A stretch of 4,765 bases of DNA from a virus (lineage: Duplodnaviria > Heunggongvirae > Uroviricota > Caudoviricetes), in the IMG/VR virus record IMGVR_UViG_2534681657_000014, one strand, 5' to 3'. The notes under the pieces are model-generated. The model searched no databases, was not told the origin of the DNA, and was given only the letters and a program-made list of their open reading frames with translations. Below are positions 927 to 4,765 of this stretch, in pieces. Position numbers and translations under genes: made by a program. Numbering within the stretch: position 1 is the stretch's first letter; the number at the start of each line of letters is the position of its first letter.

Positions 927-1763
927 GTGGCAGATCTCGATGATGGTTACGCCAGACTATCAAATATGCTGCTTGAGGCTTATTCAGGCGCAGATCTGAC
1001 CAAGCGACAGTTTAAAGTGCTGCTTGCCATTCTGCGTAAAACCTATGGGTGGAATAAACCAATGGACAGAATCACCGATTCTCAACTTAGCGAGATTACA
1101 AAGTTACCTGTCAAACGGTGCAATGAAGCCAAGTTAGAACTCGTCAGAATGAATATTATCAAGCAGCAAGGCGGCATGTTTGGACCAAATAAAAACATCT
1201 CAGAATGGTGTATCCCTCAAAACGAGGGAAAATCCCCTAAAACGAGGGATAAAACATCCCTCAAATTGGGGGATTGCTATCCCTCAAAACAGGGGGACAC
1301 AAAAGACACTATTACAAAAGAAAAAAGAAAAGATTATTCGTCCGAGAATTCTGGCGAATCCTCTGACCAGCCAGAAAACGATCTTTCTGTGGTTAAACCG
1401 GATGCTGCAATTCAGAGCGGCAGTAAGTGGGGAACAGCAGAAGACCTGACCGCCGCAGAGGGGATGTTTGACATGGTGAAGACCATCGCGCCATCAGCCA
1501 GAAAACCGAATTTTGCTGGGTGGGCTAACGATATCCGCCTGATGCGTGAACGTGACGGACGTAACCACCGCGATATGTGTGTGCTTTTCCGCTGGGCCTG
1601 CCAGGACAACTTCTGGTCCGGTAACGTGCTGAGTCCGGCCAAACTCCGCGACAAGTGGACCCAGCTCGAAATCAACCGTAACAAGCAACAGGCTGGCGTG
1701 ACAGCCGGAAAACCAAAACTCGACCTGACAAACACTGACTGGATTTACGGGGTGGATCTATGA
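927..1763 (+). CDS. O: lambda-type replication initiator protein O, N-terminally truncated by the upstream IS insertion
   Basis: The 278-aa translation (VADLDDGYARLSNMLLEAYSGADLTKRQFKVLLAILRKTYGWNKPMDRITDSQLSEITKLPVKRCNEAKLELVRMNIIKQQGG...NTDWIYGVDL) matches lambda O as I recall it from residue ~22 onward. The frame is open back to 834, and 885-926 still encodes FNFGRGNFAGQERN (lambda O residues ~8-21), but there is no ATG. The first usable start is GTG 927, preceded by AGGAG at 916-920. The native start and first ~8 codons are displaced by the IS. Confidence 0.9.
   Translation: MADLDDGYARLSNMLLEAYSGADLTKRQFKVLLAILRKTYGWNKPMDRITDSQLSEITKLPVKRCNEAKLELVRMNIIKQQGGMFGPNKNISEWCIPQNEGKSPKTRDKTSLKLGDCYPSKQGDTKDTITKEKRKDYSSENSGESSDQPENDLSVVKPDAAIQSGSKWGTAEDLTAAEGMFDMVKTIAPSARKPNFAGWANDIRLMRERDGRNHRDMCVLFRWACQDNFWSGNVLSPAKLRDKWTQLEINRNKQQAGVTAGKPKLDLTNTDWIYGVDL
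1213..1297 (+). repeat. ori-lambda iterons (four O-binding repeats, each an internal dyad)
   Basis: Four tandem units inside the O coding sequence: TCCCTCAAAACGAGGGA (1213-1229), TCCCCTAAAACGAGGGA (1233-1249), TCCCTCAAATTGGGGGA (1257-1273), TCCCTCAAAACAGGGGGA (1280-1297). This is the classic ori-lambda iteron arrangement. Confidence 0.88.
1298..1340 (+). other. A/T-rich unwinding segment of the replication origin next to the iterons
   Basis: CACAAAAGACACTATTACAAAAGAAAAAAGAAAAGATTATTCG directly follows iteron 4, as in ori-lambda. Confidence 0.75.
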
Positions 1764-2461
1764 AAAACATCGCCGCACAGATGGTTAACTTTGACCGTGA
1801 GCAGATGCGTCGGATCGCCAACAACATGCCGGAACAGTACGACGAAAAGCCACAGGTACAGCAGGTAGCGCAGATCATCAACGGTGTGTTCAGCCAGTTA
1901 CTGGCAACTTTCCCGGCGAGTCTGGCTAACCGTGACCAGAACGAACTGAACGAAATCCGCCGCCAGTGGGTTCTGGCTTTCCGGGAAAACGGGATCACCA
2001 CAATGGAACAGGTTAACGCAGGAATGCGCGTAGCCCGTCGGCAGAACCGACCATTCCTGCCATCACCCGGGCAGTTTGTTGCATGGTGCCGGGAAGAAGC
2101 ATCCGTTATCGCCGGACTGCCAAACGTCAGCGAGCTGGTTGATATGGTTTACGAGTATTGCCGGAAGCGAGGCCTGTATCCGGATGCGGAGTCTTATCCG
2201 TGGAAATCAAACGCGCACTACTGGCTGGTTACCAACCTGTATCAGAACATGCGGGCCAATGCGCTTACTGATGCGGAATTACGCCGTAAGGCCGCAGATG
2301 AGCTTGTCCATATGACTGCGAGAATTAACCGTGGTGAGGCGATCCCTGAACCAGTAAAACAACTTCCTGTCATGGGCGGTAGACCTCTAAATCGTGCACA
2401 GGCTCTGGCGAAGATCGCAGAAATTAAAGCTAAGTTCGGACTGAAAGGAGCAAGTGTATGA
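1760..2461 (+). CDS. P: lambda-type replication protein P (DnaB helicase loader)
   Basis: The 233-aa ORF (MKNIAAQMVNFDREQMRRIANNMPEQYDEKPQVQQVAQIINGVFSQLL...AEIKAKFGLKGASV) is near-identical to lambda P as recalled. Its ATG overlaps the O stop (ATCTATGA) and its TGA stop overlaps the next ATG (GTATGATGG), the usual lambda coupling. Confidence 0.93.
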   Translation: MKNIAAQMVNFDREQMRRIANNMPEQYDEKPQVQQVAQIINGVFSQLLATFPASLANRDQNELNEIRRQWVLAFRENGITTMEQVNAGMRVARRQNRPFLPSPGQFVAWCREEASVIAGLPNVSELVDMVYEYCRKRGLYPDAESYPWKSNAHYWLVTNLYQNMRANALTDAELRRKAADELVHMTARINRGEAIPEPVKQLPVMGGRPLNRAQALAKIAEIKAKFGLKGASV

Positions 2462-2777: not shown

Positions 2778-3272
2778 ATGAGAAAATTTATTTTAGCCTT
2801 TGTTATAAGTGCCTCGTTTACAGCAAATGCTGGTGTAGAGAAGTTAGGGCCGTGGATAACAAAGTCTGAGATAAATAAAATGACTGACCAGACTGACTTT
2901 GTGGCCCTTAATTTATCACCAGATTCATATAACAAAGCAGGTACTGATCGTGCAACTTCACTGGTGTTGCGTTGTAGTGATAACAAAACAGATGCCTATT
3001 TATCATTCAATGATTATATGGGTTCGGACAACCCAAGAATTACAGTGCGGTTAGATGGCGGAAAGCCGGTCAAGAGTGTTTGGGGAGGTGGGGAAGGCGG
3101 TGATTCTGCATTTGCTCCACAACCAATACAATTTATAAAGACCTTGGCTAAGCATAAAAAAGCTATTTTTGGGTTTGAACCTTATGGATCAACTATGCAA
3201 GTAGTTGAGTTTGACTTGTCTGAGATTGATAAGGTTGTGGAAAAAATTTCACAGTCTTGCAATTGGAAATGA
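2778..3272 (+). CDS. hypothetical secreted/periplasmic protein with Sec-type signal peptide; moron-like cargo gene of unknown function
   Basis: 164-aa ORF with RBS AAGGAGA (2764-2770) 7 nt upstream of the ATG. N-terminus MRKFILAFVISASFTANA-G has a basic n-region, hydrophobic core and A-N-A cleavage motif, with no lipobox Cys. Two Cys in the mature part (LRCSD, QSCNWK) and a Gly-rich loop (WGGGEGGD). Markedly AT-rich compared with the flanking O/P genes, and followed by an intrinsic terminator. I do not recognise a homolog. Confidence 0.8.
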   Translation: MRKFILAFVISASFTANAGVEKLGPWITKSEINKMTDQTDFVALNLSPDSYNKAGTDRATSLVLRCSDNKTDAYLSFNDYMGSDNPRITVRLDGGKPVKSVWGGGEGGDSAFAPQPIQFIKTLAKHKKAIFGFEPYGSTMQVVEFDLSEIDKVVEKISQSCNWK

Positions 3273-3288
3273 CAAAAAAATTTCATAT

Positions 3289-3315
3289 GAACCCAGTTTG
3301 CGCTGGGTTTTTTAT
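3289..3315 (+). terminator. intrinsic (Rho-independent) terminator of the secreted-protein gene
   Basis: GAACCCAG-TTTGCG-CTGGGTT followed by TTTTTTATTT: stem CCCAG/CTGGG (3292-3296 / 3303-3307, extendable by A-T pairs), 6-nt loop, T-run 3308-3313, starting 17 nt after the stop codon. Confidence 0.7.
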
Positions 3316-4307
3316 TTCAGTAGCCAATAATGCATTCAAAATCTCTTACTTGAGAAACGGCCTATTTGAGATTTCAGTCGTGGCAGGATGATCAGTTGAT
3401 TCGAGTATTGACGCATTTGCGTTCGGAGCGATTACAGTAGATTGTAAATAATAATGAGAAACACATAGCCACCCCGTGGTATTGAAACCATATAATGTTG
3501 GATTTGAAAACAGATCTTTTCCCATGTATTAATAACTACATCCCCGCGAGTGATTCAAAAAGGAGGGCCCAATTTTGTCCGAGTTTTTGTATTCCCCCGC
3601 ATGCCGCTGCGGAGCACTACATCTGAGTGTCTGACTAGGGGATAAAATTAGACTGGATAGTGAGAAGAAAGTGGCGCGCTAGGCTGTGCCGAGTGCTACC
3701 AGTACACCTTGGGGGTGTGCAGCTTTCGCCGAGACTGTAGTGGGTATCGGTTAATGCACGAAAAACCGAGAGGTCAGACAACCAATTTGCCGTAGGATTG
3801 TTTCCGGTGCGATACCGGTCTACTAACTGAAAGCAATGCGAAAAAGCATAAACTCGGTCCTTCAGTCGCCCTACACACTATTTACTAAGAAGGGCTGAAG
3901 CATGGATACAATTATTACATGGATGGGAGATCGTCTGTTGGGGGGACACAAAAATCCGATCTGCGGCAGATGGCGATCACTGGATTAACTTCCGCGATTT
4001 GTTCAACAATTTTGTACACTGAAAAATTAAAACATGGTGAGCCTATTAACCCAAACGAAGAAGAAAAACTTTATAGGCTTTGGTATGAAGGAAACGCTTG
4101 AAAGAATAAAGCACAATTAAAACCTTTGATTTGCGATAATCAACTTGCCATAATTAAGTAATCGGAGTCTGAACAACTCCGGTGACTTCTGCGCTAAACG
4201 GGGACGTTTATGCGCACATACAATCCAAACTATCTTCTCCTTTCACAGATGCAGAAATGCACCTGCAATTCTTTGCATCTAGCGTTTGACCTCTGCGGAG
4301 GTGAAGC

Positions 4308-4430
4308 GTGAACCTCCCACAAGACGGCATCAAATTACATCGCGGCAACTTCACCGCTATCGGCCAGCAGATCCAGCCTTATCTGGAGGAAGGCAAATGC
4401 TTTGTAAGCGTCAACGGAGCACCGTATTGA
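4308..4430 (+). CDS. short ORF (40 codons) with strong RBS; probably the 5' fragment of a gene interrupted by the IS66-family insertion, with its last 9 codons read from the IS terminus
   Basis: GGAGG (4297-4301) sits 6 nt upstream of GTG 4308. Translation [32 protein letters not shown] then VSVNGAPY*, where the last 9 codons (4404-4430) lie inside the GTAAGCG... terminus of the IS66-type element. No homolog recognised. Confidence 0.3.
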
Positions 4431-4436
4431 CGCTTA
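4404..4436. repeat. IS66-family terminal inverted repeat containing a strong hairpin
   Basis: GTAAGCGTCAACGGAGCACCGTATTGACGCTTA: arms TAAGCGTCAA (4405-4414) and TTGACGCTTA (4427-4436) are perfectly complementary (10 bp), with inner CGG/CCG pairing around an AGCA loop. Followed by TTTATT on the + strand. The transposase stop codon lies within the right arm. Confidence 0.45.
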
Positions 4437-4765
4437 TTTATTGGTGAGTACTACGTTCCATGGCAGGAGTTCGTCAACACGGTTGGAGGGCCATTCCGGC
4501 AGTACGCTCAGAATATGGCGCAGATACGCTTCCGGATCGATACCGTTCAGTCGGCAGGTGCCGATCAGCCCGTACAGCAGTGCTCCACGCTCGCCGCCGT
4601 GATCGCTACCGAAGAACACGTAATTTTTCTTTCCGAGACAGACTGCACGAAGCGCTCTTTCCGCTGTGTTATTGTCCACCTCCGCCAGACCGTCATCACT
4701 GTAATAACAGAGGGCGTCCCACTGATTCAGTACATAGCTGAACGCTTCGCCCAGTCTGGATTTTT
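4434..4765 (-). CDS. IS66-family transposase (TnpC-type), C-terminal part; N-terminus lies beyond the window
   Basis: Minus-strand translation ...KSRLGEAFSYVLNQWDALCYYSDDGLAEVDNNTAERALRAVCLGKKNYVFFGSDHGGERGALLYGLIGTCRLNGIDPEAYLRHILSVLPEWPSNRVDELLPWNVVLTNK* carries the IS66-family signature (DNNxAERALR...LGRKNxLFxGS...GG...LIxTCKLNGIDPxAYL...ELLPWN). The frame stays open to the window edge, so the M at 4679 in the ORF track is an internal GTG, not the true start. Confidence 0.85.
   Translation of the reverse strand, partial: KSRLGEAFSYVLNQWDALCYYSDDGLAEVDNNTAERALRAVCLGKKNYVFFGSDHGGERGALLYGLIGTCRLNGIDPEAYLRHILSVLPEWPSNRVDELLPWNVVLTNK

Follow-up and report, generated by a model that had tools for sequence, protein, structure and literature searches.

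A probable new family of structured RNA in an accessory cassette of lambdoid prophages of Escherichia coli and its relatives

The DNA analysed here, called the window, is a stretch of 4,765 nt (IMG/VR record IMGVR_UViG_2534681657_000014) and represents a piece of a defective lambdoid prophage of Escherichia coli of the DLP12/phage-82-like kind. The subject of this study is its interval 3316–4296, whose left edge is the terminator of a TagO/VasI-like cargo gene and which ends before ybcN, and in particular a structured RNA encoded within it. A sequence-only reading had described the interval as a non-coding kilobase dense in hairpins, containing either a structured non-coding RNA (ncRNA) or the pseudogenised remains of cargo genes. 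There is indeed no long open reading frame (ORF), the longest in any frame having 60 codons. Compared with related loci, which are cited by their L numbers, the interval consists of five pieces: the stump of a Roi-like gene, a promoter, the structured RNA, the pseudogene of a 118-codon gene, and the promoter and leader of ylcH-ybcN (Table 1). Both earlier proposals hold, each for different sub-segments and neither for the whole kilobase, and part of what had been taken as non-coding is a conserved and annotated gene of 33 codons. The new RNA makes up about one third of the interval. The other two-thirds are ordinary, consisting of gene debris and a known promoter and leader. Copies of the interval with 100% identity are found in many RefSeq E. 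coli chromosomes, where the sole annotation is the 33-codon 'hypothetical protein' at the right end. The G+C content is 0.48–0.52 across the RNA versus 0.34–0.42 in the neighbouring cargo DNA.

Table 1. Features of the window, with positions counted from its first nucleotide (RBS, ribosome-binding site; IS, insertion sequence)
Feature	Position	Strand	Description
IS3-family element	1–~888		Inserted in the 5' end of the lambda-O-like gene; transposase end at 846
O (lambda-O-like replication gene)	to 1763		Resumes at 889 with ...NFGRGNFAGQERNVADLDD
P	1760–2461		Right of O
ren pseudogene			Between P and the TagO/VasI-like gene
TagO/VasI-like cargo gene	2778–3272		RefSeq name 'type VI secretion system-associated protein TagO'; weak Pfam VasI match
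Intrinsic terminator of the TagO/VasI-like gene	3289–3315	+	9-bp stem (3289–3310) plus T-run; terminator scan
3' remnant of Roi/antirepressor-like gene (P22_AR_C)	3322–3440	+	tblastn, DNA homology
RNA promoter (sigma-70, predicted)	3504–3533	+	−35 TTGAAA 3504–3509, 18-nt spacer, −10 ATTAAT 3528–3533
Structured non-coding RNA, ~332 nt, two domains	3540–3871	+	RNAalifold consensus, 16 variants
RNA domain 1	3540–3644		P1 AUCCCC/GGGGAU closing a junction; stacked arm 3546–3600; hairpin 3605–3629
Candidate pseudoknot	3630–3635 with 3773–3778		GUCUGAC 3629–3635 versus GUCAGAC 3773–3779
RNA domain 2	3651–3867		Long-range helix 3651–3656/3862–3867 around inner helices
RNA domain 2, inner helices	3667–3727, 3728–3751, 3765–3770/3853–3858, 3788–3835, 3836–3849
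E. coli-specific hairpin	3860–3900	+	CTTCAG...CTGAAG, extended by GCCCT/AGGGC
Pseudogene of the 118-aa protein (phrog_12412)	3902–4120	+	tblastn; alignment with the intact Turner gene, L003 4551–4907
Promoter of the ylcH(orf33)-ybcN-ninE-ybcO-rusA operon	4126–4154	+	TTGATT (4126–4131), 17-nt spacer, TG-CATAAT (−10 4149–4154)
Inverted repeat	4158–4186	+	CGGAGT-7 nt-ACTCCG at 4163–4181; 'possible regulator-binding site' in X92588
orf33 (ylcH), 33 codons	4210–4311	+	RBS 4198–4203; WP_072141579.1 in RefSeq; orf33 in X92588
ybcN	from 4308		GTG start; RBS 4297; truncated at ~4404 by IS66-family end
IS66-family transposase C-terminus	4434–4679	−	Within window 4404–4765

Comparison of the relatives makes it very probable that a plus-strand RNA structure under selection exists at 3540–3871. 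The predicted fold has 90 pairs in 17 helices, and compensatory changes are found in seven of these helices. Pairs were counted in an alignment (A4) of 31 distinct full-length variants, which are 70–100% identical to the window, and for control the 3' partners were slid by 1–3 columns. Standard pairs occupy 96.4% of the cells (90 pairs in 31 variants) versus 32.7–46.3% in the slid controls. Changes on both sides occur at 20 pairs versus 3–8, and the covariation score is 0.222 versus 0.044–0.066. Several of the seven helices have three or more types of pair. For example, the pair 3669/3725 is A-U or G-C, the pair 3678/3694 is C-G, G-C or G-U, and the stem 3731–3736/3743–3749 shows up to five pair types. 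The predicted pairs include 354 G-U cells versus 18 A-C cells, which favours the plus strand, and when read on the other strand only 84.3% are paired. The alignment as a whole consists of long invariant runs interleaved with short and highly variable stretches. Of the segments compared between the window and phage Turner, the RNA has diverged least, by 0.9% as against 3.3–22% in the flanks. The three substitutions that separate these two RNAs all fall on predicted pairs, two of them changing C-G to U-G and one U-G to U-C.

The pseudoknot given in Table 1 is a candidate only. Its six tested pairs are formed in 99.5% of the cells and are near-invariant, with one C-G to U-A compensation. Another long-range pairing, of GUCCGAG (3577–3583) with CUCGG (3853–3857), was rejected. 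Two variants (L053 and L054) carry GACCCAG instead, and there the change is compensated within the local hairpin (GGU/ACC). The 3' arm CUCGG covaries with 3765–3770.

All six hairpins named by the sequence-only reading are present within a few bases of where they had been placed. Their density stands as a modest excess: there are 12 perfect stems of at least 6 bp, a number reached in 3 of 200 dinucleotide shuffles (5.9 ± 2.3), and three of at least 7 bp compared with 1.5. As a guide to the RNA, two of the six were right, those at 3703–3721 and 3804–3818, which belong to the comparatively supported fold. As for the other four, one (3860–3900) occurs in the E. coli variant only, and two are inside former or present coding sequence (4040–4079 in the 118-codon pseudogene and 4247–4280 in orf33). 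The last (4163–4181) is an inverted repeat that the phage 82 record already marks as a possible regulator-binding site. The folding energy of 3536–3900 as a single sequence is no better than that of shuffles (z = −0.19 and +0.05 for the two strands). Since neither folding energy nor hairpin density is remarkable, the case for the RNA rests on comparison with its relatives and not on hairpins.

The conserved stretch could in principle have no function as RNA, being instead a decayed protein gene of the minus strand or a DNA 'linker' kept by recombination between lambdoid modules. A minus-strand frame is open across the element in 7 of the 31 variants, and boundaries in lambdoid mosaics are generally known to carry conserved sequence. 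However, substitutions are spread over the three codon phases without periodicity (50/63/55, p = 0.46) and indels of 1–2 nt occur. Therefore, neither the short plus-strand ORFs nor the minus-strand frame is coding, and the latter was rejected. The maintenance of pairing by compensatory double changes, the strand-specific excess of G-U, the alternation of invariant runs with covarying stems, and a plus-strand promoter and terminator of its own (both predicted) also speak for RNA, and a stretch functioning as DNA or protein remnant is extremely unlikely. Another rejected candidate is a 19-codon ORF behind a conserved AAGGAGG in the RNA. Its frame is shifted in L071 and L082, which lack 1 nt there, and its would-be synonymous sites are invariant. 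The record of phage Turner (PP925837; L003) has two short 'hypothetical protein' coding sequences on top of the RNA (4144–4275 and 4325–4444). Their frames are not conserved in other variants, and these calls are probably spurious.

The predicted promoter would place the start of the RNA at A3540, the A of AUCCCC. It was called by inspection of the alignment, and a strict consensus scan omits it as the −10 element does not have the required A at position 2. All variant types keep TTGAAA, TTGAAT or TTGTAT followed at 17–18 nt by (T/A)TTAAT, TTAAAT or TTATAT, and the sequence of the spacer is variable. In a search for the CI operator, no copy of the prophage's OR-type operators (TTAAGA...TCTTAA type) was found at this promoter, which is therefore probably active in the lysogen. 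A direct repeat, TGGTATTGAAACCATAT / TGGATTTGAAAACAGAT (3477–3515; spacing 22 nt), overlaps the −35 element. Other variants have the palindrome ACCATA-TGTTG-TATGGT at this place. The repeat or palindrome is possibly a regulator-binding site.

At the other end, a terminator consisting of a GC-rich stem and T-run is found 5–10 nt past the last helix in 15 of the 20 variants that are not of the E. coli type (e.g., L067). Variants with the 118-codon gene, including the window, have no terminator between the RNA and the ORF, and the RNA runs straight into the gene. The AUGC-GAAAAA-GCAU hairpin was compared with nut sites (boxA/boxB), and the likeness was found unconvincing. In some variants its loop is a tetraloop with an extra G-C pair. 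In one IMG/VR contig (L046, ~3330–3400), the RNA is broken near its 3' end by an IS21-like element with an IstA-like ORF.

The segment 3540–3868 alone matches the Klebsiella phages Kp4856-1 and Kp4862-1 at 78% identity, where it is found between different genes. Relatives were gathered by exact-pattern scans with invariant blocks, which gave about 70 IMG/VR contigs and 28 metagenome contigs. Look-ups via homologues of the 118-aa protein added genomes of Obesumbacterium proteus and Enterobacter bugandensis, and three further variants beyond the 31. The RNA is common to lambda-like prophages of E. coli, Klebsiella, and their relatives. It is present in 159 of 5426 complete E. coli genomes (about 3%), with one copy each, and in none of these 159 RefSeq genomes is there an annotated feature under it. 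Inducible phages carrying it are Turner, IdasGreatGrand, and Klebsiella phage Kp4856-1. It is absent from the plasmids searched. Two exact-pattern scans with invariant blocks of 19–24 nt found no match in 185,579 GTDB species-representative genomes, and the hosts are therefore assigned from phage and RefSeq records and from the source names of proteins. No more distant relatives were found by a gapped two-block pattern and an nhmmer profile over 80 further ybcN loci.

The Rfam scan that had been suggested for this interval returned no match in 3316–4296. For the RNA, Rfam 15 gave nothing at E ≤ 10, either with the whole window or with 3500–3910 alone under lax filters, and the most divergent variant (L082) had only a chance snoRNA match in its flank. 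ARAGORN detected no tRNA or tmRNA. A full-text literature search for the invariant strings and for keywords found nothing on this RNA. A preprint on the Pas small RNAs (sRNAs) (10.64898/2026.05.13.724894) and the HepS paper were checked, and both concern other loci. It is concluded that the RNA is a new family, within the limits of the databases and literature searched.

Among known RNAs, ROOL and GOLLD are similar in being large, multi-helix RNAs of phages and prophages that are recognised by covariation, have no adjacent dedicated protein, and are of unknown function. The RNA described here differs in that it matches neither of their Rfam models, is found only in lambdoid prophages of Enterobacterales, has a clear promoter and terminator of its own (as predicted), and lies directly before an accessory ORF. 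ROOL and GOLLD are also larger (~580–800 nt versus ~330 nt). The ORFs next to the RNA, in the window as in about 45 related loci, are not long enough or are of other kinds, and those scanned with Pfam gave no reverse transcriptase domain, which a retron would have beside its ncRNA. The sRNAs of E. coli prophages (DicF, IpeX, AgvB/AsxR, and Pas) are 50–150 nt long, Hfq-type, represented by Rfam models, and mostly located in late or lysis regions (10.64898/2026.05.13.724894). They too are non-coding RNAs of lambdoid prophages with their own promoters, but the present RNA is ~330 nt long, highly structured, without Rfam match, and located in a nin-proximal cargo slot.

In every case the RNA is part of the early-right operon, with the replication and early nin-type genes on its upstream side and the ybcN/ninB-type genes on its downstream side, all on the same strand. 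Within ~10–45 nt the RNA is always followed by an accessory ORF of this strand. From the RNA or its terminator to the next start codon the distance is too short for a separate promoter, and the downstream genes would therefore be transcribed by read-through only. Such a constant place, directly upstream of an ORF with no promoter between, is also what is expected of a purely cis-acting leader, in which the fold senses a signal and sets downstream expression, with no role in trans. As in a riboswitch or attenuator, a conserved 5' fold, a terminator, and an ORF exist on one strand, and the terminator of the 15 variants mentioned above is at an attenuator-like position. In the E. coli type, the RNA is the 5' untranslated region of the 118-codon gene, and the E. 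coli-specific hairpin joins the last helix to the Shine-Dalgarno (SD) region: with its 5' arm it overlaps the long-range helix (3' strand), and with its 3' arm it covers an SD-like GAAGG before the ATG at 3902. The remaining variants with the 118-codon gene (L057, L062, L104, L106, and L109) do not have this hairpin, which is therefore not a conserved expression platform. Inspection of the alignment revealed no alternative terminator pairing and no conserved antiterminator or anti-sequestor pairing with the terminator or SD, and the junctions differ between variants. A ligand-sensing leader would not usually stand before unrelated genes, as this RNA does. With ~330 nt and 17 helices the RNA is also far above the typical size of known riboswitch aptamers, and it is intact where the downstream gene is dead. 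A purely cis-acting leader is a possible but doubtful explanation.

The genes behind the RNA encode proteins of 118, 183, 178–191, 95, or 177 aa, or the RNA is followed directly by a DUF1367 nin gene (L054). The 118-aa gene is found behind the RNA in E. coli, Enterobacter, and Obesumbacterium. The protein of 178–191 aa has two hydrophobic transmembrane (TM)-like segments near both ends. The 183-aa protein (L004 4385–4936, Klebsiella phage Kp4856-1) has an RHNLLH (Rx4H) motif near its C-terminus and no sequence match in Pfam, PADLOC, or PDB. Judged by this motif, it may be a divergent HEPN-like protein. Except for DUF1367 in L054, no significant match of the downstream proteins was found in Pfam, NCBIfam, or PADLOC, and the only PHROGs matches were to families of unknown function.

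The 118-aa protein, when intact, matches phrog_12412 at 8e-70. Its family comprises 21 clusters, all from Enterobacterales. The AlphaFold model (predicted local distance difference test score 79.6) suggests four helices. It has no significant fold match, and matches to HEPN toxins are insignificant (E about 1). Neither a Pfam match nor a conserved Rx4-6H motif was found in the protein. A homologue with 51% identity exists without the RNA (L108 300–656), adjoining an integrase gene and a gene for a protein similar to DNA polymerase III theta. The 118-aa protein and the RNA are therefore separable.

With small proteins encoded behind it, the RNA may be compared with the RNA partners of toxic or defensive effectors, in which case it would neutralise or gate the downstream protein in the manner of type III toxin-antitoxin (TA) systems or of the AbiF ncRNA. 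The order of promoter, RNA, intrinsic terminator, and small gene is that of type III TA loci (ToxIN, CptIN, and TenpIN), as is the location in mobile elements and defence slots. This order is present in 15 of the 20 non-E. coli-type variants, and in the window and other variants with the 118-codon gene the terminator is missing. As for AbiF, one report describes a phage-encoded system of C. difficile in which an AbiF-type ncRNA and a HEPN protein form a module (PMC12373285). Here, too, a structured ncRNA lies upstream of a small, possible effector gene in a prophage. One variant's protein has the Rx4H motif and another the two TM-like segments, the same slot elsewhere holds TIR and HEPN proteins, and a decayed protein gene beside a kept RNA, as in the window, is the expected look of toxin loss.

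On the other hand, antitoxin RNAs of type III systems are tandem repeats processed by the toxin, whereas this RNA is repeat-free. TRF found 0 arrays in 3316–4296, and there are no direct repeats of 10 nt or longer in 3530–3880. It is the RNA that is conserved here and the protein that changes, and one and the same RNA would need to act with five or more unrelated proteins. In L054 it precedes an ordinary nin gene. Searches of the downstream proteins with Pfam, NCBIfam, and PADLOC gave no toxin or defence match, including no endoribonuclease of the ToxN/AbiQ/CptN type. Directly downstream of the RNA there is no Abi_2 or HEPN match in Pfam either. The 118-aa protein lacks the Rx4-6H motif and any significant likeness to HEPN toxins, and it has a homologue without the RNA. 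With the AbiF ncRNAs, the RNA itself was compared through Rfam, in which it has no match. Overall, an effector partner is unlikely.

The RNA in the window is flanked by gene remnants on both sides. On the left, the final 28 codons and the stop of the Roi-like gene are still in frame (3354–3440), and DNA homology reaches back to ~3322. With the intact 202-aa protein of L005 as query, tblastn gives 19 of 28 identical residues at 3354–3437 (E 5e-9). A 107-aa fragment of this gene in phage Turner matches Pfam P22_AR_C at 1.1e-15, and intact genes of 202–249 aa exist at the syntenic position in L005 and L007. In the window, the TagO cassette has replaced most of the gene. On the right, the 118-codon gene is found by tblastn (E 2e-26) as three pieces in two frames, corresponding to aa 1–14, 17–67, and 107–118. 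There is a frameshift in the G-run 3940–3945, and aa 107–118 are again in the first frame. Residues ~68–106 were lost by an internal deletion of 134 nt, whose ends correspond to 11-nt direct repeats of the intact gene. The 60-codon ORF (3919–4101) is an out-of-frame piece of this gene. By these lesions, the copy in the window is a pseudogene and not a working member of phrog_12412. The frameshift is a difference between 6-G and 7-G homopolymers, and the 7-G allele (L002, VR50) has an in-frame 66-aa product (phrog_8527). This could be a slippage-prone site or a sequencing artefact in some assemblies. Both flanks are what the sequence-only reading had foreseen as an outcome that would speak against an RNA, namely, fragments of genes without conserved structure. 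The segment 3540–3871 clearly is not.

The right end of the interval is a promoter and leader that is already known and annotated. The orf33 product is found in RefSeq, and we take the gene to be ylcH of K-12. Of the 5426 complete E. coli genomes, 2759 contain the orf33 stretch. The gene ends in a stop codon that overlaps the GTG at which ybcN (orf151 in phage 82) starts. In BLAST searches against phage records, 4125–4296 is 89.5% identical to the phage 82 record X92588 and is widespread in lambdoid phages. The annotated features of X92588 are collinear with the window one-to-one (offset 4076), and its leader has the same −35 and −10, inverted repeat, RBS, and orf33 with no substantive difference. 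The promoter is positive in the consensus scan, and its hexamers are the putative −35 and −10 in X92588. In phi80, the repeat IR4 lies in the stretch corresponding to the inverted repeat.

In the remainder of the window, the IS3-family element interrupts O, and the prophage is therefore incapable of normal replication. A partial match to the ALIL frameshift pseudoknot is seen at 1–31 within this element. The ori iterons in O (1204–1304; repeated ATCCCTCAAAACGAGGGA-type units) give false H/ACA snoRNA-like Rfam matches on both strands. The TagO/VasI-like gene is an AT-rich prophage cargo gene with its own terminator, and the N-terminus of its protein is hydrophobic and signal-peptide-like. At the right, ybcN (4308–4430) is interrupted after ~32 codons, with the IS66-family end beginning at ~4404 (GTAAGCG...).

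The RNA cassette occupies a hypervariable slot, which has the replication genes on one side and the ylcH-ybcN-rusA-Q block on the other. The survey of this slot covered 1.5 kb before ybcN in 80 sampled loci whose ybcN is near-identical (L111–L190; e.g., L123 2004–2813, L115 1983–2776, and L120 105–2699). From the Roi-like gene to ylcH-ybcN, these loci differ in content, with at least 26 fillings, among them a TIR_2 protein, a HEPN protein with a 133-aa partner, an 865-aa invasin/Big_1 protein, lipoproteins, and several unassigned proteins. The RNA is present in 13 of these loci, and the other 67 have no detectable relative. The RNA cassette is thus an optional cargo in a 'moron'/defence-type hot spot, and the slot seems to be a place where DLP12/phage-82-like prophages collect cargo or defence genes. 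This also bears on the idea that the RNA is a cis-acting processive antitermination element, like put of phage HK022, by which polymerase would read through the nin-region terminators towards Q. The position of a promoter-proximal structured RNA followed by a terminator is compatible with this, since the entry to the nin region is where lambdoid phages have terminators (put and tR2). However, the RNA is about five times the size of put, its fold is unlike that of put, and no similarity to an Rfam model is seen. An unrepressed promoter feeding Q would be dangerous to the lysogen, and an optional element is not a core regulatory part. Such a role is very unlikely.

The explanation preferred here, which we consider about evenly poised between right and wrong as a whole, is that the interval is a mosaic produced by cargo turnover in a defective lambdoid prophage, and that the RNA gene with its own sigma-70 promoter belongs to an accessory ('moron') cassette, serving both as a folded RNA and as the leader of its neighbour gene. 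Its promoter, having no OR-type operator, would probably fire in the lysogen. The transcript would fold into the two domains and act itself, as a binder or sensor of a protein or small molecule. Read-through of the short terminator, or its absence in the E. coli type, would make the RNA the 5' leader of the neighbouring accessory gene and the only route by which that gene is transcribed in the lysogen. In the window, the RNA and its promoter are intact and the co-transcribed 118-codon gene is dead. Because the fold is conserved independently of the downstream gene and is intact beside a dead one, it probably has a function of its own.

Several points weigh against this explanation. The promoter, start, and 3' end of the RNA are predictions. 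Only a few lineages account for the compensatory changes, and the cell counts are raised by recombination between variants. The folding energy of the single sequence is unremarkable. The family is narrow, with at least 70% identity, being found only in lambdoid prophages of Enterobacterales and absent from the GTDB representatives. No result points to a partner or ligand, and a purely cis-acting leader would explain just as well why the RNA is constantly found directly before an ORF.

E. coli and lambda-like prophages are among the best-studied genetic systems, and an unannotated RNA of ~330 nt with 17 predicted helices was unexpected in them. The RNA accounts for a recurrent 'empty' interval in the annotation of E. 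coli prophages, and it suggests that short 'hypothetical protein' calls over it in phage records are spurious. Since it is carried by inducible phages and by about 3% of complete E. coli genomes, in a slot otherwise filled by TIR, HEPN, and invasin-like cargo, the RNA may plausibly contribute to lysogen fitness or phage exclusion, and such a role is directly testable in a tractable host. A further, speculative and rather improbable idea is that the RNA, expressed in the lysogen, is the constant sensor or gate of a modular RNA-based accessory system, controlling or partnering interchangeable effectors encoded immediately behind it (the four-helix 118-aa protein, the Rx4H protein, the two-TM protein, and others). 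If so, this would be a new type of system for phage defence or exclusion, built around a constant RNA instead of a constant protein.

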